From Candidatus Hydrogenedentota bacterium (GTDB lineage Bacteria; Hydrogenedentota; Hydrogenedentia; Hydrogenedentales; JAEUWI01), in contig JAXMOL010000035.1 of NCBI GenBank assembly GCA_034669905.1, positions 1-64,000 on the forward strand: DNA of 64,000 nucleotides, read 5' to 3'. This document shows positions 298 through 16,476 of the stretch, piece by piece (position 1 is the stretch's first letter; each line of letters opens with the position of its first letter). Made by a program: the position numbers and the translations under genes. Under the pieces are notes generated by a model, which was not told the DNA's origin, did not search any database, and saw nothing but the letters and a program-made list of their open reading frames with translations.

Positions 298-3200
298 CTA
301 TTTCACTTCGAGGGTGACGGGCGCGGAGGTGGCTTCCATTTCGGTGTTGTAGTAGGCGTAGACCTTGGAGGGTGGGGTCTGGGCCTTGAGGGGGAACTTC
401 GCCCGGAGTCCGTAGGAAAAGGTCAGGGTGGCGTTGCCCTGGATTTCCTCGAAATAGAGGATGATCTGGCGGCCTGCCACTTCATAACGACTGATGGGTC
501 CTTCGGTGACGAGTTTCTCCAGGTCACTTCGTTCTACCTGGAAGCCGGGGGGCACGCCGAGGTCGACGATGGTCATCTCGGTCTGTCCGGGCAGGTTGTT
601 CTTCACCGTGACCGTGGCGGTGACCACGTCATTCACCGCGAGTTTGGTCTTGTCGTAGGCCACGTCGATGGTGAAGGGTTCGGGACCGGGCTTCCGATTT
701 GTCCAGGGCGCGTAGTGCCGTCCCACGACCTGATAGAGGAGGGAGCCCTCCCCACTGAACTCGATGCGCACGTCGTTGTTGCCGAGCTTCGTCTGGTCGC
801 CCGCATCAATGAGGCGCATGACGTCGGCGTTTTCTTCCGTCACCTGAAACTCACTCACCACCGTGTCGTTGACCCGGACGCGGACCGTGGCGTTCACGTC
901 GCTGGTCTGGTGCTGGAGGGAAAGGGTGAGGGCTTTCAGCGCGAGGATGGTGGACTGGGTTGAGCCCCAGTGTCCGCTGGCCTGCTTTTTCTGGATGAGC
1001 CAGGTGAGGGCTTCCGTGGTGGTGTCGTGGAATTTTCCGGCCTTCATGAAGGCGATGGTGGCCAGGGCCGTGGCTTCCACATCGGCGGCGTCGCCATGGG
1101 TGAAGGTCACCGTGGCCGTCCCCTTCCAGTGGGTGGTTTTGTCTTCCTTTACGGCCAGTCCGTGAAGTTTCTCCAGCACGCGTTGGGTCGTGGCATCGCT
1201 TTTATCCCACGAGACGAGGGCATTGGCGACCAGGGCAAGGGTGTAGGCGTCCTCGGCTTTCTGCCAGTGCTGTTTGAGGTATTGGATGGCCCGGTCGATG
1301 CTCGGGTCGCCCTTGCCCCCAGTGAGGAGGGCATCGGTGATATAGGCGGTGACCAATACGTCGCTGCCCTGGATGTTGCCCCACGATTCGGCGTGGAGAT
1401 AATTTTCGTCGGGCTTCCAGCTACCGTCCGATTCCTGGAGGCTGAGGAGCCAGGCATGGGTTCGCGCCACGACGTCAGGATCCACTTCGTGGACTTTCGC
1501 CATGTCGTAGAATTCCTTGAGGCCATAGGCCGTGAGGATCTTGTTGGCGGGCGCTTCGCCAAACCAGGAGAAGCCGCCGCCGGGCACTTCATAGGTCAGG
1601 AGTCGCTGATAGCCCGCGTTGATGAAGCCTTCGGCCTTAAGCTGAAGCTCGGGATTAATCTGCTCCGTCTCCTGCATGTACTGGACGATGAGGATGTTGG
1701 GGTAGGTGGTGGAGCTGGTTTGCTCGAAGCAGCCCGAGGGCATCTGGAGCATGCTGTCGAGGCCATCGACAATCTGGCTGAAGACGCCGGGGTAAACCCG
1801 CACGAGAATTTTCTGCGCGCCTTCCACGCTGCCGTCGGGGATGGTGATGGTGTGTTCGACCGTGGCGGACAGGCGGTCACTCACGCTCACTTCGACTTTC
1901 TCGCCATCGGGGGCCACTTCCACCTCACGGCGGATGGCGTCTTGCATGGTTTTGCCGTGAGCGAAGACGGTGAGCTTATGGTGTCCCAGTTCCTTCACCT
2001 GGATGGGGAAATAGAGGGCGCGCACTTCCCCGGGGTTCATGGTTACCGTGACTTCCGCGTCGCCTTCCAACTCAAACCAGGTGTCGGTCTCAAAGACCAG
2101 GCGCACGTCCTGGGCGGTGTCGAGGTAGTTGTAGAGGACCACGGGGATGGAGACCCGGTCGTTTTGCGTGAGGAAGACGGGCAGGTCAATGTCCACGAAG
2201 AATTCCTGGAAGACCCGCAGGGGCGTTTCCGTGCTGCCCAGGGCACCGGCCGCGTTGGAGGCCATGGTGGTCATGCGCCACGTGGTGATGCTGTCGGCCA
2301 GCCCCACCGCCATGGTGGCCTGTCCCCGGCTGTCGGTGATGAGGGCCGGCTCGAAGAGGAGGGTCTCGGGGAAATATTCCCGGATGCGCACCGTCGGTGC
2401 TCCCCCATCGCTCTCGGCGGTCCCTTCCGTTTCGGCGATGGAACCCAAGGCCGCGACTCCCATGGCCATTTCGGGCACGGCGGCGGCCATGGGAAGGGCA
2501 TCCTCCATCATTTCATTCTTGAAGAGCATGCGACGTCCCCGTTGGGGGAAGCCTCCGCCAAAGCCACCCCGCCCCGCGAAGCGTTGTTGCAGCCAGGGGG
2601 TCTCTTGGGTGAGGTCGTCGGCGGTGCCATCCATACCATCGGGGCCCACCGAGTGCATCTGGAACCAGCCGCCCGTGTTCTCCAACTGACCGAAGTCGAA
2701 TTGGTAGCGGTTGCCCCAGGGATCCTTCAGTTCGCGGGCGGCAATATATTTCTGGCGCAGGAGGGCCGAAAGCATATCGCCAGGCACCTTCCAATCGTGT
2801 TTCTCCAGGTAACGCCGTACCACGGCCTGCACTTTTTCATAGTCCTGGGTGAAGCGCTCGGCCAGGGCCGTCTCCGCGGCGTCCCGTTTGCCCGTGAAGC
2901 TGTTTTGGTGGATGGGCGGCGCCGGAGGGGCTTCGGCGGAAGCGAGCAGCACCTTGGCAGCCTCCTGTTGCCGGGCGTCCCAAAGGATGGGCTCGGGCCG
3001 GGGCTGGGGGTCGACAGGGTGCTTGATGAGGGTGTCCAGGTGGTAGCCATGGATCTCATAGCGGGGCTTCATGATCTCCTGTTCCAGCGTGAAGAAGACC
3101 TTCTCCAGACCGGGGTGGAGTTCCTGCAGGGCGAAGACGCTTTCATCCACGATGGAGACCCCGAGGGCCGCCGCCGTGGGACGGCCGTTCTTGTCCGTCA

Positions 3201-5205
3201 CGGAAAAGTGGAGGGTCGCTTCCTCGCCGGGACGGTAGGTGTCGTGGTCCATGGAGATGGTGAGCTGGAGCTGATCCGCCGGGTTAATGTAGAGGAGCCG
3301 CGTGTCGCGGATGAGGTCTGTCGTGGGCGAGAACATGTAGGCGTGGAGCACCACACTGCCCATGAGTCCGGGGTCCAGATCGAGGTCCAGGCTTGCCCGC
3401 CCGTCTTTCAGGGTTCCGCTGCGGGTCATGACCGTCTGGCCTTCGCGGACCAGGTCGAAGTAGACATTGCCGCGCTGTTTGGTGGCGATGACTTCCGCGT
3501 GGAGGGTGCCTCCCGCCGGGTAGAGGGTTTGATCGGTGCGTACCAGGAGGGATTGTTCACCGGGTTCGGAGGAAAGGGTCGCGGTGTGTTTCAGGGTGTG
3601 GCCCTGGGTGTCTTTCACGTCGAGTTGCAGGGTGGTCTCCCCCGCCTTGGGCGTAATGCGGAAGGTTCCCACGCCCAGTGCATTGGTCTGGGTGCGGAGT
3701 TTCCCATGGTCTATGGTGCTGGTCACGACAGCGCCTTCCACCGGGCTGCCATCGGGACGGGCCACGAGGACATAGATGTCGTTTTCGATCCCTGGTGCCA
3801 GTTGGCCCCCTTCGGCGATGGCGTGGACCTGGATGTCCGCAGCGGCCACGGATTTCATGACGCTCTTCATTTCCACGTGGTCGGCGGTGTCGGTGATTTC
3901 GACTTCCAGCCGCACCGAGGCCTGGCCCTGTTCCAGCTCGGTGCCCACGAAATGCCGGGGCAGAGGCAGGCTGAACGACCAGTGGCCTTGCTCGTCCAGG
4001 GTGCCTTCCAACTCACTGAAGGTGTCAAAGTTCACGACGAAGGTGGAGGCCTTCACCGTTACCGTGCCCCCTGCCACCGGTTTGCCGAAGAAGTAGTCGG
4101 ACTGAATCTCCCCTTTCAGTGTGTCGCCCGGGCGGTAGAAGGCCCGATCCGTGGAGACTTCGATGGCGAACTTTGGAAGGACATAGCGATCGACGGTGAC
4201 CACTTTCTCGCTCTGGTCATCCCCGAGGATGGCGCGAACCGTGTAGCTGCCGAGGTTCACTTCCGTGGCCAGTTGGAAGCGGGTGGCCGCAATGCCGAAG
4301 GCGTCGGTGTCGTGACGTTCTTTGAAGACCTTGTTGCCCTTGCCGTCCATGACTTCAAAGGTGAGTTCCTGATCGGCAGCGGGTTTGAGATTGCCCGCGT
4401 TGAGGGAGAGGGCGCGGAGTTCGATGAACTGTCCCGGCTGGTATTGGGGCTTGTCCGTGCTGAGGAGGATCTTGTTTTTCTTCTTCACTGTGACGGGCTG
4501 CGCGAGTTTGTCCTCGCCGAAGCCGTCAGCGGCCAGTCGGATTTCCAGGGTGCAGTTGCCCCAGTATTTGGGCCACACGTCGAAGGAGGCATCGAGACTG
4601 CCGTCTTCGTTGGTGGTGCCCTCGAAGACCGGGAAGCGCTCCGTGTCACGGACGAGGGTGATTTCGGCGTCTGCGTTGGGCACGGGCGCGCCGGTGGCGT
4701 GGTTGAGGGCCACGAGCTGGACGGCGGCCTTACTGCCCACCAGCATATCGGGGAAGCCCACGAGACGGGTTTCCAGCTGGGGCAGGGTGTCGATAAGGAG
4801 AAAGCCCCCCTCCTCCTCGCTGCTGCCCGAGCCGAAGGTGTAGGTCACCACGCTGTCCGCATAGTGCTCGGCGTTGAGCTGTCCGCTCAGGGGGAGGGAC
4901 ACCGCATTTTCACCGGGCTGGAGCGAAAGCCGCTGGGAACCGCTCAGGCGATGTTGGCCTGCCAGGCTCTGGACGGCGACCCGGAAAAGCTCATTGGCCA
5001 CCGTGTTGCGGGGGTTGTGGATGACGGCGTGGGCCACCATCTGATTGCCGTCGGGGCGAATTTCGAAACGGTCGCGGTCGACCCGTGTGGCGGGGGCCTT
5101 TTCCTGTGCCAGAACGGGCAGGACGCCTTCCCGGGCCATCCACGTGCCCGCCAGGGCGACGAGGATGAATGTCGTGGTCCATAGGGCTAAGCTCTTTACT
5201 TGCAT
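298..5205 (-). CDS. Alpha-2-macroglobulin-family thioester-containing secreted protein (about 1635 aa)
   Basis: MG-domain motifs (TDKPQYQPG, YVLPKF), REYFPET, thioester GCFEQ (1720-1731) and C-terminal VYAYYN. Start reassigned to ATG 5205 (MQVKS), which has a GGAGG RBS and a hydrophobic signal sequence. Confidence 0.95.
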   Translation of the reverse strand: MQVKSLALWTTTFILVALAGTWMAREGVLPVLAQEKAPATRVDRDRFEIRPDGNQMVAHAVIHNPRNTVANELFRVAVQSLAGQHRLSGSQRLSLQPGENAVSLPLSGQLNAEHYADSVVTYTFGSGSSEEEGGFLLIDTLPQLETRLVGFPDMLVGSKAAVQLVALNHATGAPVPNADAEITLVRDTERFPVFEGTTNEDGSLDASFDVWPKYWGNCTLEIRLAADGFGEDKLAQPVTVKKKNKILLSTDKPQYQPGQFIELRALSLNAGNLKPAADQELTFEVMDGKGNKVFKERHDTDAFGIAATRFQLATEVNLGSYTVRAILGDDQSEKVVTVDRYVLPKFAIEVSTDRAFYRPGDTLKGEIQSDYFFGKPVAGGTVTVKASTFVVNFDTFSELEGTLDEQGHWSFSLPLPRHFVGTELEQGQASVRLEVEITDTADHVEMKSVMKSVAAADIQVHAIAEGGQLAPGIENDIYVLVARPDGSPVEGAVVTSTIDHGKLRTQTNALGVGTFRITPKAGETTLQLDVKDTQGHTLKHTATLSSEPGEQSLLVRTDQTLYPAGGTLHAEVIATKQRGNVYFDLVREGQTVMTRSGTLKDGRASLDLDLDPGLMGSVVLHAYMFSPTTDLIRDTRLLYINPADQLQLTISMDHDTYRPGEEATLHFSVTDKNGRPTAAALGVSIVDESVFALQELHPGLEKVFFTLEQEIMKPRYEIHGYHLDTLIKHPVDPQPRPEPILWDARQQEAAKVLLASAEAPPAPPIHQNSFTGKRDAAETALAERFTQDYEKVQAVVRRYLEKHDWKVPGDMLSALLRQKYIAARELKDPWGNRYQFDFGQLENTGGWFQMHSVGPDGMDGTADDLTQETPWLQQRFAGRGGFGGGFPQRGRRMLFKNEMMEDALPMAAAVPEMAMGVAALGSIAETEGTAESDGGAPTVRIREYFPETLLFEPALITDSRGQATMAVGLADSITTWRMTTMASNAAGALGSTETPLRVFQEFFVDIDLPVFLTQNDRVSIPVVLYNYLDTAQDVRLVFETDTWFELEGDAEVTVTMNPGEVRALYFPIQVKELGHHKLTVFAHGKTMQDAIRREVEVAPDGEKVEVSVSDRLSATVEHTITIPDGSVEGAQKILVRVYPGVFSQIVDGLDSMLQMPSGCFEQTSSTTYPNILIVQYMQETEQINPELQLKAEGFINAGYQRLLTYEVPGGGFSWFGEAPANKILTAYGLKEFYDMAKVHEVDPDVVARTHAWLLSLQESDGSWKPDENYLHAESWGNIQGSDVLVTAYITDALLTGGKGDPSIDRAIQYLKQHWQKAEDAYTLALVANALVSWDKSDATTQRVLEKLHGLAVKEDKTTHWKGTATVTFTHGDAADVEATALATIAFMKAGKFHDTTTEALTWLIQKKQASGHWGSTQSTILALKALTLSLQHQTSDVNATVRVRVNDTVVSEFQVTEENADVMRLIDAGDQTKLGNNDVRIEFSGEGSLLYQVVGRHYAPWTNRKPGPEPFTIDVAYDKTKLAVNDVVTATVTVKNNLPGQTEMTIVDLGVPPGFQVERSDLEKLVTEGPISRYEVAGRQIILYFEEIQGNATLTFSYGLRAKFPLKAQTPPSKVYAYYNTEMEATSAPVTLEVK

Positions 5206-5388
5206 GGGGTTGCCTCCATGAGCGGCGAGGCGCTCGGTGGTCTTTTTCGGTCTCGTAGCGGCTTTTTCGGTGTGCGCGGGGCTGGTTTGGCCGACCGGTA
5301 TACTTGGTGCTGCCCTTCGCGCTATCCTATTGGACACCATCGGGGGACGGTGGTTCGGAGAAATCGAAGTCCCAGTTCACAGGGGAAT

Positions 5389-5833: not shown

Positions 5834-5937
5834 AGCCATTTTACATCGGGACAAAAGGCTTTCATTTAAACCCAAACCACCAGGTATTGGTCAAGGCAAA
5901 CGAAACGCAGCCAATCCGTTTACCGGGAGTTCGTTCT

Positions 5938-7158
5938 ATGATCCGTTTATTGGGGAAGTGTATTGCCGGGCTGATCCTTGGGCTGCAGGTCGCCGGGGCC
6001 GGGCCTGCCTTTGAGTTGACCGTCGTGGAGCCGGCCGCCACGAGTTACGCCACCTTCCAGAGTCACAACCAGAAGGTGGTGGCCAATGAACGGGGTTATT
6101 TCATGACCCTGATTCGGACGCGGGATGAACCCTTCCTGGCGCAGAATTGGCGTCTCCTCCATAGCGCGGATGAGGGCAAGCACTTTGACGTAATCTACGA
6201 CGCCACCCATGCTACCAATCCCCCACCGATTGAGACGGATAGCAATAACAATATTTATCTGGCTCGGACGGATTATACGGATGGGAACGGCTATCTCTAT
6301 TTCTTCGAAGCGGCGAAGGATTACCAGGACCCGCGGATTACGATCATCCCTGGTGGAGCGGCGGGCAAGGTGGCCTTGTTGCTGGATGAAGCCCACGATT
6401 GTCTCTACTACGCGTCCCACAATAACCGTTTTTATAGACTCGGGCTGGACGGCACCGTGCACGAGAACTTCGAAATTGTGCGGGGCGGCCCCCATGCGGG
6501 ACTCCAGTATCCCCTCTTGCGCCAGGACGATGGGGGTGCGATTCATTATGCGTGGACGTCGCAGCAGAATGGCGTCTATATGTATTGGGACATCCACCAC
6601 ATGCTTCGTCCGCCGGGCAAGAGCAGCTGGCAGAACCTGGATGGCACGGCCCTGACCCTGCCGGTGGTGGCCGATGATACAGGGGCGGCCACGCGAATCA
6701 GTCTGGAGGATGAGTATGAATCCTTTACGTGGTTGTCGAGTTTCACGCTGAAAGGGGGCAAGGCCCATTTCCTTTACCTGACCCAGAGCCAGCCACCCCG
6801 TCAGAATTATGTGCGGCGGGACAGCGCCACCGGCGTGGAAGAAGTGCGGACCCGGCTGGACGGGCTCTATCTGCTGAGCGGGCTCCTGGTGGCACCCGAT
6901 GCCACGGCCGAATCGCCGTTGTATCTGGTGAGCGGCTACCAGGGGCAACTGAAGGCCCGTGTGTCCCATGACAATGGCGACACCTGGCAGTCCTATGCCG
7001 AACACGAGGGTGTGTTCAACCTGTATTCCCTCGGCGGTTGCAACACGGTGACGGACGACGGCTATATTGTGGGGAGTTTTACCGACCAGAAAGCCGGTGA
7101 TGGCCTGTTGTCCCGGGAGTCAGTGGTGTATTTCTATCGGTTGAAGGTAGGAGAGTGA
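5938..7158 (+). CDS. Secreted BNR/Asp-box (sialidase-like fold) protein
   Basis: Signal peptide from ATG 5938 and Asp-box motifs HSADEGKHF and VSHDNGDTW. Confidence 0.7.
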   Translation: MIRLLGKCIAGLILGLQVAGAGPAFELTVVEPAATSYATFQSHNQKVVANERGYFMTLIRTRDEPFLAQNWRLLHSADEGKHFDVIYDATHATNPPPIETDSNNNIYLARTDYTDGNGYLYFFEAAKDYQDPRITIIPGGAAGKVALLLDEAHDCLYYASHNNRFYRLGLDGTVHENFEIVRGGPHAGLQYPLLRQDDGGAIHYAWTSQQNGVYMYWDIHHMLRPPGKSSWQNLDGTALTLPVVADDTGAATRISLEDEYESFTWLSSFTLKGGKAHFLYLTQSQPPRQNYVRRDSATGVEEVRTRLDGLYLLSGLLVAPDATAESPLYLVSGYQGQLKARVSHDNGDTWQSYAEHEGVFNLYSLGGCNTVTDDGYIVGSFTDQKAGDGLLSRESVVYFYRLKVGE

Positions 7159-7564: not shown

Positions 7565-8488
7565 ATGATTCGATTCATACTCAAACGCCTGGCCACCTTT
7601 ATCCCCGTGTTGCTGGCGATCATTACCATCACCTTCTGCATGGTGCGGATAGCGCCGGGGGGGCCTTTTTCGGAGGAACGTAAGGTCCCGGAAGAGGTCT
7701 TGCGTCAGTTGGAGAAGACCTACAATCTGGATGCTCCCCTCTACCGCCAATATTTCGATTACATCGGGGGCGTGTTGCAGGGGGATCTGGGACCTTCCTT
7801 TAAGAAACCGAGCCGCACGGTGCGGGAATGGGTGGTGCTCCGCCTGCCCGTATCCCTCGAGCTGGGGGCCTATGCCCTCCTGGTGGCCCTGTGTATCGGC
7901 CTTCCCGCCGGCATTATTGCGGCGAGCCGTCCCAACTCCGCGCAGGACTACGTCCCCATGTCCATGGCGATGGCGGGCATCTGTATTCCCAATTTCGTGC
8001 TGGGTCCCCTGCTGGTGCTCGTCTTTTCGCTGTGGCTGGGCTGGCTGCCGGTAACGGGTTGGGATACGCCCGCGGAAAAAATTTTGCCCTCGCTGACGCT
8101 CGGGGCCGTCTACGCGGCGTACGTGGCCCGTTTGACCCGGGGCGGCATGTTGGAAGTCATGGGACAGGACTATATCCGCACGGCCCGGGCCAAGGGATTG
8201 AGCGAGACGGCGGTGGTGTTGAAACACGGCGTGCGCGGTGGGTTGTTGCCCGTCGTGGCGTACCTGGGACCCGCGACGGCCGCGCTGCTGACAGGCTCTT
8301 TTGTGATTGAGAAGATTTTTCAGATACCCGGACTAGGCCGTGAGTTTGTGGAAGCCGCCTTTAACCGGGATTACACCATGATTATGGGGACTGTGCTGGT
8401 CTATGCGACCCTGGTGCTCGTGCTGAATCTCGTGGCCGATGTGGTGCATGCGTGGCTCGATCCGCGGGTGCGGATGGCGATGAAATGA
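7565..8488 (+). CDS. oppB: Oligopeptide ABC transporter permease
   Basis: APGGPF, GDLGPSF and EAA-like loop DYIRTARAKGLSE; FNRDYTMIMG. Confidence 0.93.
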   Translation: MIRFILKRLATFIPVLLAIITITFCMVRIAPGGPFSEERKVPEEVLRQLEKTYNLDAPLYRQYFDYIGGVLQGDLGPSFKKPSRTVREWVVLRLPVSLELGAYALLVALCIGLPAGIIAASRPNSAQDYVPMSMAMAGICIPNFVLGPLLVLVFSLWLGWLPVTGWDTPAEKILPSLTLGAVYAAYVARLTRGGMLEVMGQDYIRTARAKGLSETAVVLKHGVRGGLLPVVAYLGPATAALLTGSFVIEKIFQIPGLGREFVEAAFNRDYTMIMGTVLVYATLVLVLNLVADVVHAWLDPRVRMAMK

Positions 8489-9378
8489 GCGAGGCCTCTC
8501 TCCTGGAACAGGCCGAATCGGGCACCTCCCTCTGGCAGGATGCCTGGCACCGGCTGCAAAAAAATAAGTTGGCTGTCGCCAGTGCCGTGGTGCTGATACT
8601 GGTCGTGGTGATTACATTGTTGGGGCCGTGGATCATTGCCCTGACACAAGGTTACAGCTACCGCGACCAGGATACGGCCCTGGGCGCATCGCCCCCCTCG
8701 GCGGCCCACTGGTTTGGCACCGACACCTTGGGCCGGGACCTGTTGGTCCGCACCCTCTATGGTGGCCGTATTTCCCTCATGGTGGGACTGGTGGCCACGT
8801 GTGTCTCGATGATTATCGGCGTGTCCTACGGGGCCATCGCGGGCTTTGCCGGTGGCCGGACGGACCAGGCCATGATGCGGGTGGTGGATGTGCTCTACGC
8901 CCTGCCCTTTACCATCTTTGTGATCATATTGATGGTGCTTTTCGGGCGAAATATCTTCCTGCTCTTCTTCGCCATTGGTGCGGTGGAGTGGTTGACCATG
9001 GCGCGTATCGTGCGCAGCCAGGTGATCTCCCTGCGGGAGAAAGAATTTATCGAAGCGACCCAGGTGATGGGCTTTCGCCGCCGTCAGATTATTTTCCAAC
9101 ACATCATCCCCAACTCCCTGGGGCCGGTCATTGTCTACGTGACGCTCACGGTGCCCCAGGTCATGTTGCTGGAGGCCTTCCTGAGTTTCCTTGGACTCGG
9201 GGTCCAGCCGCCCATGAGCAGCTGGGGCGTGTTGATCGAAGACGGCGTCCGCACCATGGAAGAGTATCCCTGGATGCTACTGTTCCCGAGTCTGGCCCTG
9301 TCGGCCACCCTGTTCGCGTTGAACTTCCTCGGCGACGGCCTCCGGGACGCCCTCGACCCCAAAGCCTCGAAGGATTAG
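8485..9378 (+). CDS. oppC: Oligopeptide ABC transporter permease
   Basis: ATGA overlap with oppB; HWFGTDTLGRD, EAFLSFLGLG and GDGLRDALDP. Confidence 0.93.
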   Translation: MSEASLLEQAESGTSLWQDAWHRLQKNKLAVASAVVLILVVVITLLGPWIIALTQGYSYRDQDTALGASPPSAAHWFGTDTLGRDLLVRTLYGGRISLMVGLVATCVSMIIGVSYGAIAGFAGGRTDQAMMRVVDVLYALPFTIFVIILMVLFGRNIFLLFFAIGAVEWLTMARIVRSQVISLREKEFIEATQVMGFRRRQIIFQHIIPNSLGPVIVYVTLTVPQVMLLEAFLSFLGLGVQPPMSSWGVLIEDGVRTMEEYPWMLLFPSLALSATLFALNFLGDGLRDALDPKASKD

Positions 9379-9482
9379 ATCGTTGGCCGCGAAAGAACAC
9401 AAAGAAACCGAGCGCTCGTTACGACGGTCTTCCGTCGTAATGCCTACCGTTCCGCTCCCGCGGAACTTGGGACGCGCGTGAT

Positions 9483-10490
9483 ATGCCCTTGCTTGAGGTA
9501 GACAATCTCCAAACCGCCTTCCACACGCGCGATGGCATTGTCCGTGCGGTGAATGGCGTCTCCTACGCGATTGAACCCGGTGAAACCCTGGGCATCGTGG
9601 GCGAATCCGGCTCAGGTAAATCGGTGTCCCAGTATTCGCTGTTGGGCCTCTTGCCCACCCCGCCCGCCAAAATAGAATCGGGCACCGCCCGCTTTGAAGG
9701 CACCGATTTGTTGTCGGCCAGCCCCGCCGAATTGCGGAAGATTCGCGGCGGCCGCATTGCCATGATTTTCCAGGACCCCATGACCGCGTTAAACCCTTTC
9801 ATGCGCGTGGGGAAACAGCTTTCCGAACCCTTGCTGCTTCATGGTGATGTGGACAACGCCACCGCGCGCAAGGAAGCGATTCAGGCCCTGAGTGACGTGG
9901 GCATTCAGGATGCCGAGGTGGCCCTCAACCGCTTTCCCCATGAGTTTTCCGGGGGGATGCGTCAGCGCATTATGATCGCCATGGCCCTCATCACCCGGCC
10001 CGCGCTCTTGATTGCCGACGAGCCAACGACGGCGTTGGATGTAACCGTGCAGGCCCAAATCTTATCGCTCATCAAAAAGCGCCAGGAAGAGTTGGGCATG
10101 GCGGTCGTCATGATTACCCATGATCTGGGCGTGATAGCGGCGACCTGTGACCGGGTGCTGGTTATGTATGCCGGGCAGGTGGTCGAATCGGCTACCCGGA
10201 CGGAATTGTTTCGCCAGTCGGCCCATCCTTATACGCAGGCGCTTATGGCCTCTATGCCGGCCCTGCACCACGAAGGAGAAGCCCTTTACACCATACCGGG
10301 ATTGCCACCCGACATGACCCGGCCCATTCCCGGCTGTGCCTTTGCGCCCCGTTGCGCCCATGCCGAGCCGGCCTGTCAGGAAACCGCACCGACGCTGCAG
10401 GCCCTCTCCCCCGAACACGGCACGGCCTGTTTGCGCATTCAATCGGGGAGTCTCACCCGGGAGCAACTGCACGCGGAGACCCAGGTATGA
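9483..10490 (+). CDS. oppD: Oligopeptide ABC transporter ATP-binding subunit
   Basis: Walker A GESGSGKS, signature FSGGMRQR, DEPTTALD and C-terminal GCAFAPRC. Confidence 0.93.
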   Translation: MPLLEVDNLQTAFHTRDGIVRAVNGVSYAIEPGETLGIVGESGSGKSVSQYSLLGLLPTPPAKIESGTARFEGTDLLSASPAELRKIRGGRIAMIFQDPMTALNPFMRVGKQLSEPLLLHGDVDNATARKEAIQALSDVGIQDAEVALNRFPHEFSGGMRQRIMIAMALITRPALLIADEPTTALDVTVQAQILSLIKKRQEELGMAVVMITHDLGVIAATCDRVLVMYAGQVVESATRTELFRQSAHPYTQALMASMPALHHEGEALYTIPGLPPDMTRPIPGCAFAPRCAHAEPACQETAPTLQALSPEHGTACLRIQSGSLTREQLHAETQV

Positions 10491-11488
10491 ATGATTCGCT
10501 GCTGACGGTCAACGACGTGAAGACCCACTTCCAGGTGAAGAGCGGTCCTTTTTATAAGCGCCAACACGGTGTGCTGCGGGCGGTGGATGGCGTCAGCCTT
10601 TCCCTGCGCGAGGGCGAGATTCTCGGGCTCGTGGGGGAATCCGGTTGTGGTAAGTCGACCCTGGCCCGGACCATCATGCGCCTGCTGCCCATTACATCCG
10701 GGGCGGTAACCTTCAATGGCAAAGATCTCACAAACTATGAGCGGGAAGCCCTGCGCCGCGTCCGGCCCGAATTTCAGATGATCTTTCAGGATCCTTACGC
10801 GTCCCTGAATCCGCGTAAGACGGTCTATGACACCCTGGCTGAGCCCCTCCTTACCCATGACATCGTGCCGCGGAGCGAAGTGGCGACTGAAGTGGGCCGC
10901 CTCATGGAGACCGTGGGACTGGCGAAACGCTTTGTCCGCAAATACCCCCACGAATTCTCCGGGGGACAACGCCAGCGCATCGCCATCGCCCGTGCCCTGG
11001 CCCTGCGGCCCCGGCTCATCATTGCCGACGAGCCCGTGTCCGCCCTGGATGTATCGGTCCAGGCCCAAATTCTGAATCTCCTCCGCACGCTCTGTAAGGA
11101 AGAGCAACTCGCTATGATTCTCATTTCCCATGATCTGGGGGTCGTGCGCCACATGGTACACCGCATCGCCGTCATGTACTTGGGGAAAATCGTGGAGCAG
11201 GGGCCCGCCTCGGAAGTCTTTGAGCAGCCGCGCCACCCCTACACCCGTGCCCTCCTGGCCGCCATACTGCGGCCCACGGCCGACGCGGCGGCGACCTTGA
11301 CGGATCTCATGCTCAAGGGGGACCCGCCTTCTCCGGTCAATCCCCCGTCGGGCTGTGCCTTTCACCCCCGCTGCCCCTGGGCGGCGGCCGAATGCGCGGG
11401 TGAAATACCGCCGCTGATAGCCTGTGGCGAAGGACACGAGGCGGCCTGTATACGTCTCGATGCGATCGGCCAGACCGTTCCTAAATGA
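10487..11488 (+). CDS. oppF: Oligopeptide ABC transporter ATP-binding subunit
   Basis: ATGA overlap with oppD (start MNDSLL); GESGCGKST, FSGGQRQR, DEPVSALD and GCAFHPRC. Confidence 0.93.
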   Translation: MNDSLLTVNDVKTHFQVKSGPFYKRQHGVLRAVDGVSLSLREGEILGLVGESGCGKSTLARTIMRLLPITSGAVTFNGKDLTNYEREALRRVRPEFQMIFQDPYASLNPRKTVYDTLAEPLLTHDIVPRSEVATEVGRLMETVGLAKRFVRKYPHEFSGGQRQRIAIARALALRPRLIIADEPVSALDVSVQAQILNLLRTLCKEEQLAMILISHDLGVVRHMVHRIAVMYLGKIVEQGPASEVFEQPRHPYTRALLAAILRPTADAAATLTDLMLKGDPPSPVNPPSGCAFHPRCPWAAAECAGEIPPLIACGEGHEAACIRLDAIGQTVPK

Positions 11489-13897: not shown

Positions 13898-14094
13898 GAG
13901 GTTCTGTTATATTTTGTGTCTGGAAGACCAATTGGTGGCGCGGGAGTGCGCCGACGGTTCACCAGTTTCCCCAAGTGGTGATGGGATGACCTCACCCCCC
14001 TACGCCGCCGTGCTTGTCCCCCGGCCCCGAAATACCGTAGCATGTCCGTTTCCGGGTTACCCCTTTAACCAATTCCATGCAACAGGAAACGACT

Positions 14095-15219
14095 ATGAAA
14101 ACAAAATTTCACGCCCTGGCCACCGCGGCCGCGTTGGTCCTTAGCGGTGCTTCGGCATCTGCAGCTGAGCAATCCTTCGATACCATCAAACTGCCCGATG
14201 GCTTCTCCATCAGCGTCTTCGCCGACACCGTACCCGGTGTACGTACCCTGGCCGTGGGTGACAAGGGCACGGTCTTTGTCGGCACGCGCGGGCCGGGAAA
14301 GGTCTATGGCCTCGTCGATACGGATGGCGACCACGTGGCGGACAAGACCTATGTGGTGGCCGAAGGCCTGAAAGTCCCCAACGGCGTGTTGTTCCGCGAC
14401 GGCTCGCTGTATGTGGGCGAGATCAGCCGCATCCTGCGCTACGACGACATTGAAAACAAGCTCGAGAATCCGCCCGAGCCCGTGGTCGTGACCGACGCCC
14501 TGCCGACCGAAAGTGCCCACGGTTCCAAGTACCTGGCCTTTGGCCCTGACGATCGCCTCTATTTCGGCATTGGTGCGCCCTGTGACCACTGCGACCCCAC
14601 GACGGATTTTGAAGACGACCGGCTCGGTACCATCACTTCGATGAAGGCCGACGGTTCCGATATCAAGCCCTATGTGAGCGGCGTGCGTAACTCGGTAGGC
14701 CTGGCCTGGAGCCCCGTCGACGGCACCCTGTATTTCACCGACAACGGCCGTGATGGCCTGGGTGATGACGCGCCGGACTGCGAATTGAATCGCGTCACGG
14801 AAGCGGGCCAGCATTTCGGCAACCCCTACTTCCACGCGGGCACCGTGCCCGATCCCGAGCATGCCGAAGGCAAAAACGTGGACGACTACGTGAAGCCGGT
14901 TCAGAATCTCGGACCCCACGTGACGCCCATGGGGCTCACCTTCTACACGGGTGACCAGTTTCCGGCGGAATATAAGAATAGCCTCTTCGTGACCCTCAAG
15001 GGCTCTTCCGCACGTACGGTAAAAATCGGCTACTGCATCAAGCAGGTCGTGCTCGATGATGCCGGCAATGTGGCTGCTTACAAAGACTTCGCCAGTGGCT
15101 GGACCTATCGCGGCGAATCCCTCGGACGCCCCGTCGATGTAAAAGTAGCGAACGACGGCAGCCTGTTGATGTCCGACGAACAGAACGGTTCCGTCTATCG
15201 GATTGCCTACACCAAGTAA
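14095..15219 (+). CDS. PQQ-dependent sugar/sorbosone dehydrogenase family protein, paralog 1
   Basis: Signal peptide; IKLPDGFSISVFA, GVRNSVG, DNGRD and GRPVDV. Confidence 0.88.
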   Translation: MKTKFHALATAAALVLSGASASAAEQSFDTIKLPDGFSISVFADTVPGVRTLAVGDKGTVFVGTRGPGKVYGLVDTDGDHVADKTYVVAEGLKVPNGVLFRDGSLYVGEISRILRYDDIENKLENPPEPVVVTDALPTESAHGSKYLAFGPDDRLYFGIGAPCDHCDPTTDFEDDRLGTITSMKADGSDIKPYVSGVRNSVGLAWSPVDGTLYFTDNGRDGLGDDAPDCELNRVTEAGQHFGNPYFHAGTVPDPEHAEGKNVDDYVKPVQNLGPHVTPMGLTFYTGDQFPAEYKNSLFVTLKGSSARTVKIGYCIKQVVLDDAGNVAAYKDFASGWTYRGESLGRPVDVKVANDGSLLMSDEQNGSVYRIAYTK

Positions 15220-15274: not shown

Positions 15275-15354
15275 CTTGTCCGCCAGCGGACCAATCACGT
15301 AGCATGGAGGCGTTGTGTCTTGACCGTCCTGTCCTCCACCCAAAGGAGTCTTTC

Positions 15355-16476
15355 ATGAAAAAAATGCTGCAAGGGATCGCAACCACGGCGTGTGCCCTGT
15401 GTGCCACCACTGCGATGGCCGCCGATCTCCCACTCGATCGAATCAAGCTGCCCGAAGGATTCACCATCAGCGTCTTTGCCGACAACGTGCCCGGTGCCCG
15501 CTCGATGGCCCTGGGGGATAAGGGCACCCTGTTTGTGGGGTCCCAGCGTGCGGGCATGGTTCATGCCGTCCAGGATACGGACGGTGACCAGAAGGCCGAT
15601 AAAGTTATCGTGATCGATGAAGGATTGTGGTGGCCCAATGGGGTGGCCTTCAAAGATGGCGCGCTCTATGTGGCCGAGATCAACCGCATCCTTCGCTACG
15701 ATGATATTGAGAATTCTCTGGAAGCGCCCCCCGAGCCGGTCGTGCTGGTAGACGACTTGCCCAAAGAGCAGCACCACGGTTGGAAGTACCTGAGCTTCGG
15801 TCCCGATGGCAAACTCTACTTTGGTCTGGGTGTGCCCTGTAACGATTGCGATGCGGTGGTGGAACACGATGATCCCCGCTTTGGCACCATCATGCGGATG
15901 AATGCCGACGGTACCGACGTGGAGCCCTATGTGCATGGCGTGCGCAACAGCGTGGGCCTCGCGTGGCACCCGGAAAACGGCGATCTTTATTTCACCGACA
16001 ATGGCCGGGACATGATGGGCGACGACCTGCCCGATTGCGAGTTGAACCGGGTCACCGAAGCGGGCCAGCACTTTGGCTTTCCCTACATTCATGGTGGCGA
16101 CGTGCCCGACCCCAATCATGGCAAGGGCAAGAACCCCGACGACTATGTGAAGCCCATTGAGAAGATGGGACCCCACGTGGCGCCGCTGGGCCTGAAATTC
16201 TATACAGGCGATCAGTTTCCGGCGGAGTACAAACACCGCCTCTTTATCGCCCAGCACGGTTCCTGGAATCGCACCGTGAAAATTGGCTACCGCGTGATGC
16301 AGGTCAAGTTGGACGACGCGGGCAATTCGGCAGGCTATGAAGAGTTCGCCACCGGATGGCTCCACCGGGGCGAGCCCTGGGGACGGCCCGTAGACGTGCG
16401 CGTGGCACCCGACGGGGCGTTACTCGTGTCGGATGACAAGGCCAACGTCATTTACCGGATCGCCTACACGGGCTGA
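15355..16476 (+). CDS. PQQ-dependent sugar/sorbosone dehydrogenase family protein, paralog 2
   Basis: AAGGAG RBS and signal peptide; HHGWKY, GVPCN, GVRNSVG and HGSWNR. Confidence 0.9.
   Translation: MKKMLQGIATTACALCATTAMAADLPLDRIKLPEGFTISVFADNVPGARSMALGDKGTLFVGSQRAGMVHAVQDTDGDQKADKVIVIDEGLWWPNGVAFKDGALYVAEINRILRYDDIENSLEAPPEPVVLVDDLPKEQHHGWKYLSFGPDGKLYFGLGVPCNDCDAVVEHDDPRFGTIMRMNADGTDVEPYVHGVRNSVGLAWHPENGDLYFTDNGRDMMGDDLPDCELNRVTEAGQHFGFPYIHGGDVPDPNHGKGKNPDDYVKPIEKMGPHVAPLGLKFYTGDQFPAEYKHRLFIAQHGSWNRTVKIGYRVMQVKLDDAGNSAGYEEFATGWLHRGEPWGRPVDVRVAPDGALLVSDDKANVIYRIAYTG

Follow-up and report, generated by a model that had tools for sequence, protein, structure and literature searches.

Bacterial alpha-macroglobulins have been described in two classes (PMC3328433). 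They are thought to derive from animal genes by gene transfer (PMC3328433, PMC9156758), the solved bacterial proteins differ in structure from their animal counterparts (PMC9156758), and in the passages cited here a 2026 review names no homologues other than E. coli-type ones from Gram-negative bacteria (PMC12939704). Members of the YfaS/MagD class often have no CxEQ thioester motif and are encoded in a lipoprotein operon (PMC3328433). The thioester of bacterial A2M is shielded by two Tyr of the thioester domain together with a Tyr and a Met of the last domain; in eukaryotic A2M the last domain supplies every shielding residue, three Tyr and one Met (PMC4498604). Among the animal proteins, A2ML1 inhibits proteases as a monomer. 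Its His1084 gives reactivity with glycerol and conjugation via a serine of the protease, and this His permits inhibition of a protease with blocked amines (PMC7864068). In C3, C4B and A2ML1 the His at this position is the one that forms the acyl-imidazole (PMC7864068). CD109 is also a protease inhibitor (PMC12927315). No description of a prokaryotic alpha-macroglobulin that bears this His or is of animal type was found in the literature searched. Such proteins may be mentioned by Budd et al. (2004) or Kantyka et al. (2010). Databases already label members of the family described below alpha-2-macroglobulin or CD109 antigen.

The window analysed here is a stretch of 64,000 nucleotides. As shown in Table 1, a single open reading frame on its minus strand holds both a thioester motif, GCFEQ, and a His-x-Glu motif. 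Met46 was taken as the likely start because the closest homologues are 1633-1651 aa long and a signal-peptide-like stretch, judged by eye, comes next. The whole protein contains two Cys only, Cys263 and Cys1204. The hairpin next to the stop codon comes from a scan that found 10 such structures versus 6.3 in shuffled sequences and was not significant overall. The 423-aa product of a divergently oriented gene (5887-7158, plus strand) begins with a signal-like stretch and matches no Pfam family, and an oligopeptide ABC transporter cluster (7565-11488) is located downstream of this gene. A tandem pair of genes for similar secreted proteins (14077-15219 and 15304-16476, plus strand) is, by eye, sugar-dehydrogenase beta-propeller-like.

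Table 1. Predicted features of the alpha-macroglobulin gene in the window, and GCGEQ-lineage genes at other loci (aa, residues of the 1680-codon frame)
Feature	Position	Strand	Basis
Animal-type alpha-macroglobulin gene (predicted)	298..5340	-	longest ORF 1680 aa; likely start Met46 (5203-5205), giving 1635 aa
Probable Sec signal peptide, aa 46-78, without lipobox Cys	5107..5205	-	by-eye reading; hydrophobic N-termini of homologues
Extra N-terminal beta-sandwich, aa 80-185	4786..5103	-	confident beta fold in model; column conservation 0.19
Macroglobulin ring MG1-MG6a and linker, aa 186-815 (approximate boundaries)	2896..4785	-	Pfam MG2, MG3, MG4, A2M_BRD; model
GspG-pseudopilin-like folded insert before bait, aa 816-912	2605..2895	-	Pfam T2SSG E 9.2e-6 (segment search)
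Bait region, aa 913-983	2392..2604	-	low complexity, Ala/Gly/Pro-rich, Arg sites
MG6b and MG7, aa 984-1140	1921..2391	-	Pfam A2M 5.5e-21; model
CUB domain, split by the inserted thioester domain	about 1783-1920 and 703-915	-	
Thioester domain, aa 1187-1475	916..1782	-	Pfam TED_complement; model; C3d superposition
Thioester motif GCFEQ, aa 1203-1207 (Cys1204, Gln1207)	1720..1734	-	invariant 121/121
His1316-Ala-Glu1318, specificity position	1387..1395	-	gap-free alignments
MG8 domain, C-terminal end of protein	301..684	-	Pfam A2M_recep
Terminator-like hairpin, 12 pairs then T run, directly 3' of stop codon	254..280	-	consensus match
GCGEQ-lineage genes (proteins P0266-P0386)	L032:6181-10848, L033:6298-10623, L035:8179-12639	-	
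GCGEQ-lineage gene (proteins P0266-P0386)	L034:6747-11261	+	

Pfam matches of the protein are MG2, MG3, MG4, A2M_BRD, A2M, TED_complement (1.4e-57) and A2M_recep. The features of the alpha-macroglobulin superfamily, namely MG domains, a CUB domain with an inserted thioester domain, MG8 and an intact CxEQ, are present. The ESM Atlas search returned TED_complement clusters only, and the NCBIfam search only sub-threshold squalene-cyclase matches (common barrel fold). AlphaFold models reached a pLDDT of 83.8 for aa 80-1140 and 86.8 for aa 1141-1680. The C-terminal model resembled native A2ML1, CD109 and C3 (TMq 0.64-0.68) more than C3b (0.46-0.49). With the ring model, animal alpha-macroglobulins and complement reached a TMq of 0.49-0.56, and E. 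coli and Salmonella A2M one of 0.36-0.39. Insect TEP1 is like the bacterial protein in having no complement-only domains, and TEP1r was the top match of the C-terminal model by Z (37.0), although its ring fits poorly (TMq 0.37) and its sequence score is lower.

The N-terminal beta-sandwich matched no Pfam family at E 0.01. The bait region has a pLDDT below 50 over aa 925-983 and a column conservation of 0.23. Both flanking motifs were found in 73 of 121 sequences, and in these the bait has a median length of 78 aa (45-170). C345C has no Pfam match in the protein; MG8 is the C-terminal end, and the tail after the MG8 motif is at most 30 residues in 174/174 full-length sequences with that motif. 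The anaphylatoxin domain of complement is Cys-rich. Such a domain is absent from this protein, which has the bait and the GspG-like insert instead and only the two Cys.

The original prediction reported an intact GCFEQ at 1720-1731 and an HAE motif 112 codons downstream. The thioester motif is indeed intact, while 1720-1731 spans CFEQ only; HAE lies in the same frame, with His1316 112 codons from Cys1204, exactly where it had been placed. The animal-like motifs GYQRLLTY (1591-1614) and GFSWFG (1558-1575) of that prediction were also located. In the HMMER alignments the stretch from the conserved Trp to the His is free of gaps, and His1316 is aligned with the His of CD109, the His of C4B and the Asp of C4A. 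It is likewise aligned, with no gap in the loop, with the Asn that human A2M had been said to carry. C3 was outside the five matches aligned at the residue level. His1316 and Glu1318 would be equivalent to His1126 and Glu1128 of C3 (numbering of PMC6983669) transitively, through C4B, and to this extent the predicted correspondence with the hydroxyl-directing His of C3, C4B and A2ML1 was borne out. The modelled thioester domain was superposed on C3d (1c3d), as had been suggested, with a Z of 31.7 and an rmsd of 2.2 Å over 276 residues. In a set of 121 sequences, made up of the query and the best 120 of 5757 homologues, 120 keep the His and 119 the Glu, and the residue between them varies. The TED_complement match, the gap-free alignment of the His and the conservation of His and Glu together indicate that the pair of motifs is not due to chance.

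By analogy with the animal proteins, hydroxyl reactivity of the bacterial protein is a fair prediction from the position of this His. C4B is hydroxyl-reactive yet has no Glu at +2 in the alignment, and CD109 has His-x-Glu at the specificity site, so His-x-Glu is not diagnostic of complement. Since A2ML1 and CD109, both protease inhibitors, carry the His, it predicts the chemistry and not the target.

Against solved structures the whole protein scored 7e-69 for A2M, 1.5e-68 for CD109, 4.8e-68 for A2ML1, 1.6e-54 for TEP1, 9.5e-43 for C3 and 8e-10 for YfhM. The order of the groups was unchanged with a 79-sequence profile (A2M/CD109/A2ML1 before C3). Met1589, Tyr1629, Tyr1663 and Tyr1664 of MG8 are invariant (46/46), and their aligned counterparts in C4 and in A2M receptor-binding domains are likewise Met and Tyr. 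We take these aligned residues to be the ones that form the thioester-shielding pocket, and the set is a candidate pocket of the animal type. The first thioester-domain Tyr of YfhM (15/15), which precedes the thioester proline, is Met in 121/121 sequences of the GCFEQ family; the second pocket-Tyr position is Ser in the query and Phe (82), Ser (30) or Tyr (4) among the 121 sequences.

Like YfhM/ECAM and Salmonella A2M, the protein is bacterial, has a CxEQ thioester and belongs to the superfamily. It differs from that class in having no Pfam match to bMG3, bMG5, bMG6 or bMG10 and no lipobox (no N-terminal Cys), and its gene does not adjoin PBP1C, a frequent neighbour of the genes for these lipoproteins. 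In the 10 YfhM-type rows aligned, the loop is shorter and without His. From the YfaS/MagD class it differs in its intact motif and its stand-alone gene. Judged from the sequence scores and the models, the GCFEQ family is animal-type, not YfhM-type. It fits neither bacterial class and is A2ML1/CD109-like down to the putative catalytic His and the candidate shielding pocket. A second A2M gene in the same genome (contig C13, L049:4689-10481, minus strand) is YfhM-type and encodes a protein of about 1930 aa with bMG3/5/6/10 domains; the genome's only match to the PBP1C C-terminal domain is on contig C72, not beside it.

A2ML1 and CD109 (PDB 7q1y, 8s3o and 9fx3) are among the best sequence and fold matches of the bacterial protein. 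They share with it the order MG ring, bait, CUB, thioester domain and MG8, the His of the specificity site (CD109 also the Glu at +2) and the Met/Tyr residues of MG8. The bacterial protein differs from them in having GCFEQ rather than GCGEQ, almost no Cys and no GPI-type tail, and in adding the N-terminal beta domain and the folded insert before the bait. Human A2M has the highest sequence score, but Asn at the site; it is a tetramer. C3 and C4B share the fold of the thioester domain, the His aligned with C4B and the His-x-Glu reported for C3; the bacterial protein, in contrast, has a long variable bait and neither C345C nor a Cys-rich anaphylatoxin, and scores lower with them than with the inhibitors.

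With moderate confidence, we propose that the protein is a secreted, stand-alone alpha-macroglobulin of animal type which acts as a covalent protease trap like A2ML1 and CD109 and reacts with both hydroxyls and amines. It would be exported by its signal peptide, and the Met/Tyr pocket of MG8 would shield the thioester between Cys1204 and Gln1207. A foreign protease would cut the floppy region that we regard as the bait from its variability and low model confidence, and the body of CUB, thioester domain and MG8 would open. As in C4B, C3 and A2ML1, His1316 would then attack the thioester to form an acyl-imidazole, with Glu1318 as a helper. The intermediate would bond Ser, Thr, Tyr or glycan hydroxyls as well as lysines of the adjacent protease, and the range of the trap may thereby be widened to lysine-poor proteases. 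The domain order, the closest solved relatives, which are protease inhibitors, the gap-free alignment of the His, the direct precedent of A2ML1 and its His1084, the variable low-complexity bait, the lack of C345C, the two Cys, the native-like C-terminal model and the lack of a neighbour gene shared beyond close relatives in 20 loci all argue for such a trap. Other points argue against it. The authors of the A2ML1 study allow that hydroxyl reactivity is neutral or serves membrane deposition, and His put into A2M gave no clear rise in non-amine conjugation of the tested protease (PMC7864068). Insect TEP1, whose C-terminal part is the top match by Z, is an opsonin also without C345C and anaphylatoxin (PMC5489563). 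A YfhM-type trap is already present in the genome, and the GspG-like insert, which has no counterpart in A2ML1 or CD109, may give the protein another role.

The original prediction had gone from the His to an opsonin-like covalent tag for hydroxylated surfaces, such as the glycans of a competitor, prey or phage. Such a tag would switch on close to its target and coat the glycans there for attack or capture. The step from the His to an opsonin does not follow, because the same His (and Glu) is found in the inhibitors A2ML1 and CD109, the bait is long and variable instead of a conserved convertase site, and C345C and a Cys-rich anaphylatoxin are absent. The folded insert does lie near what we take to be the place of complement's anaphylatoxin, and the protein is predicted to be secreted and is unanchored, both of which count for a tag. 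So do the His-x-Glu as in C3 (PMC6983669), the membrane deposition kept open for A2ML1 (PMC7864068) and the example of TEP1, the top match of the C-terminal model by Z, from which the complement-only domains appear dispensable for opsonin action (PMC5489563). The 95.7% complete genome, however, has no MACPF match, and no partner gene is conserved at the 20 loci compared. We know of no bacterial receptor or effector that would read a tag of this kind. Our results give no pointer to the tagging of surfaces, even though TEP1 is an opsonin without those domains, and we consider the opsonin-like tag quite improbable; the family alone is no demonstration of a bacterial opsonin. A search for Sushi domains gave zero matches anywhere, controls included.

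The His, which the original prediction expected to be conserved in homologues, is nearly invariant in the close set but not in the wider family. A wider set was taken from the best 150 of 5537 representatives at 50% identity; 6 were already in the close set and 2 were fragments without the thioester, leaving 142 aligned. By a strict column count these have His (64), Ala (23), a gap (15), Asn (14), Asp (7), Arg (6) and others; a lenient count gives His in 70/142. The exchange of His for Ala, Asn, Asp or Arg across the family, as among C4A, C4B and A2M, suggests tuning of the nucleophile preference. In a sub-group of 51/142 (P0139, P0146, P0183 and relatives) the loop reads x-Glu-Gly-Ala-Ile/Thr-Asn, with Ala (23), Asn (9), His (7), Arg (5) or another residue as x. 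These proteins form a series of natural variants of the specificity site. With His, Asn, Ala, Asp and Arg all occurring naturally at the site, the family offers a test of what decides between hydroxyl and amine preference, and the nearly Cys-free bacterial proteins may serve as models for acyl-imidazole thioester chemistry.

A quick tree (LG+G4, loop columns dropped) was built from 77 thioester domains, namely the query, 52 of the 142 wider representatives, 14 of 121 GCGEQ-lineage sequences and 10 of 15 YfhM-type sequences, with no animal rows. The YfhM-type rows were split from the rest (SH-aLRT 99); E. coli YfhM drew a long-branch warning. The His state was scattered, with 13 changes among 67 rows after removal of the two longest rows, in a tree that is blind to gain versus loss of the His and has an uncertain loop alignment in its most divergent rows. 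A single clade of the 27 His-bearing family members was rejected (AU p 0.00027, test chosen after the first tree).

This scatter bears on the possibility that the His is structural or neutral and that the protein, like E. coli ECAM or human A2M, is a trap that reacts with amines. The lack of a single His-bearing clade would fit such a trap, as would the absence of His at the aligned column in 78/142 distant representatives that keep the thioester. The A2M experiment mentioned above, in which His alone brought no clear change in conjugation, also fits (PMC7864068). Against a neutral residue stand the near invariance of His and Glu in the close set, in a loop whose middle residue varies, and the His in 119/121 sequences of the distant GCGEQ lineage (query and best 120 of 4079). 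We regard a neutral His as improbable.

The GspG-like insert gave weak PDB matches to GspG (best E 0.0043) and has a long helix with a pLDDT of about 90. GspG chains were absent from the matches listed for the 1061-residue model, which contains the insert within a larger chain. Among full-length representatives, the insert is present in 30/33 of the HxExW type and 25/33 of the EGAIN type, and in 0/114 GCGEQ-lineage proteins. A coupling of the insert to the His was rejected, as the insert is equally common where the His is absent. Another possibility is protease-triggered covalent self-anchoring, in which the hydroxyl-reactive thioester would, once the protein is cleaved, link it to the envelope or biofilm polysaccharide of its own cell as a shield or glue, and the pilin-like insert might dock it to a pilus or secretion machine. 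The high frequency of the insert in the HxExW type and the hydroxyl reactivity predicted by the His suit this explanation, and no lipid or C-terminal anchor was seen. The best-matching read sets were four runs of one study of surface biofilm on plastic, which may be the source sample; RNA read sets were absent from the read-set matches listed. The independence of insert and His counts against self-anchoring, as does the lack of conserved matrix or pilus genes near the 20 loci, and we think it unlikely.

The distribution of the family is patchy. Strong GCFEQ-family matches were found in 20/135 Hydrogenedentota genomes, including 7/8 others of the genus, and the named sources among the best 120 of 5757 homologues include Armatimonadota, Poribacteria, WOR-3, Chloroflexi, Eremiobacterota and Firmicutes. 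At the 20 loci, some of them duplicates, no neighbour gene is conserved beyond close relatives. The oligopeptide ABC cluster recurs only in two close relatives, at three loci, and further genes in common are confined to small groups.

A different protein, with GCGEQ, is carried by 4/135 genomes and has 33-36% identity to the query. One protein of this lineage scored 1.6e-120 against CD109, a much closer match than that of the GCFEQ protein (1.5e-68), and 2.4e-91 against C3; these E values are similarity scores, not phylogeny. Its named sources among the best 120 of 4079 relatives include Planctomycetota, Omnitrophica and Methanosarcinales archaea. At +2 from the His the lineage has Glu (86) or Asp (30), followed by Met-x-Gly-Gly as in CD109 and C4. 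Macroglobulins of animal type that bear the His are thus present in two lineages of prokaryotes. No animal-named proteins were among the best 120 of 5757 (GCFEQ) or the best 120 of 4079 (GCGEQ) matches. We suggest, tentatively and with more doubt than confidence, that animal A2M, TEP and complement C3 have their prokaryotic sisters or their source in these two large lineages of free-living bacteria and archaea and not in YfhM, that both lineages already had the His-x-Glu machinery and the MG8 pocket, that hydroxyl-reactive tagging would thus predate animals, and that the His switch was flipped many times in bacteria. Both lineages bring new taxa to the question of the origin of complement C3.

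Several proteins carry additional domains. P0266 of the GCGEQ lineage has a C-terminal part made up of TSP3-like repeats plus a dockerin-like domain, and a PF13385 domain is added in many of its relatives. P0044, a GCFEQ-family member, is fused to DUF4159, which is N-terminal there, and at least 9 similar proteins of 1800-1850 aa were seen. In two genomes of the phylum the gene is apparently split in two frames (L025, G100:C89; L044:8914-13814, G126:C2) by a frameshift or an assembly error.
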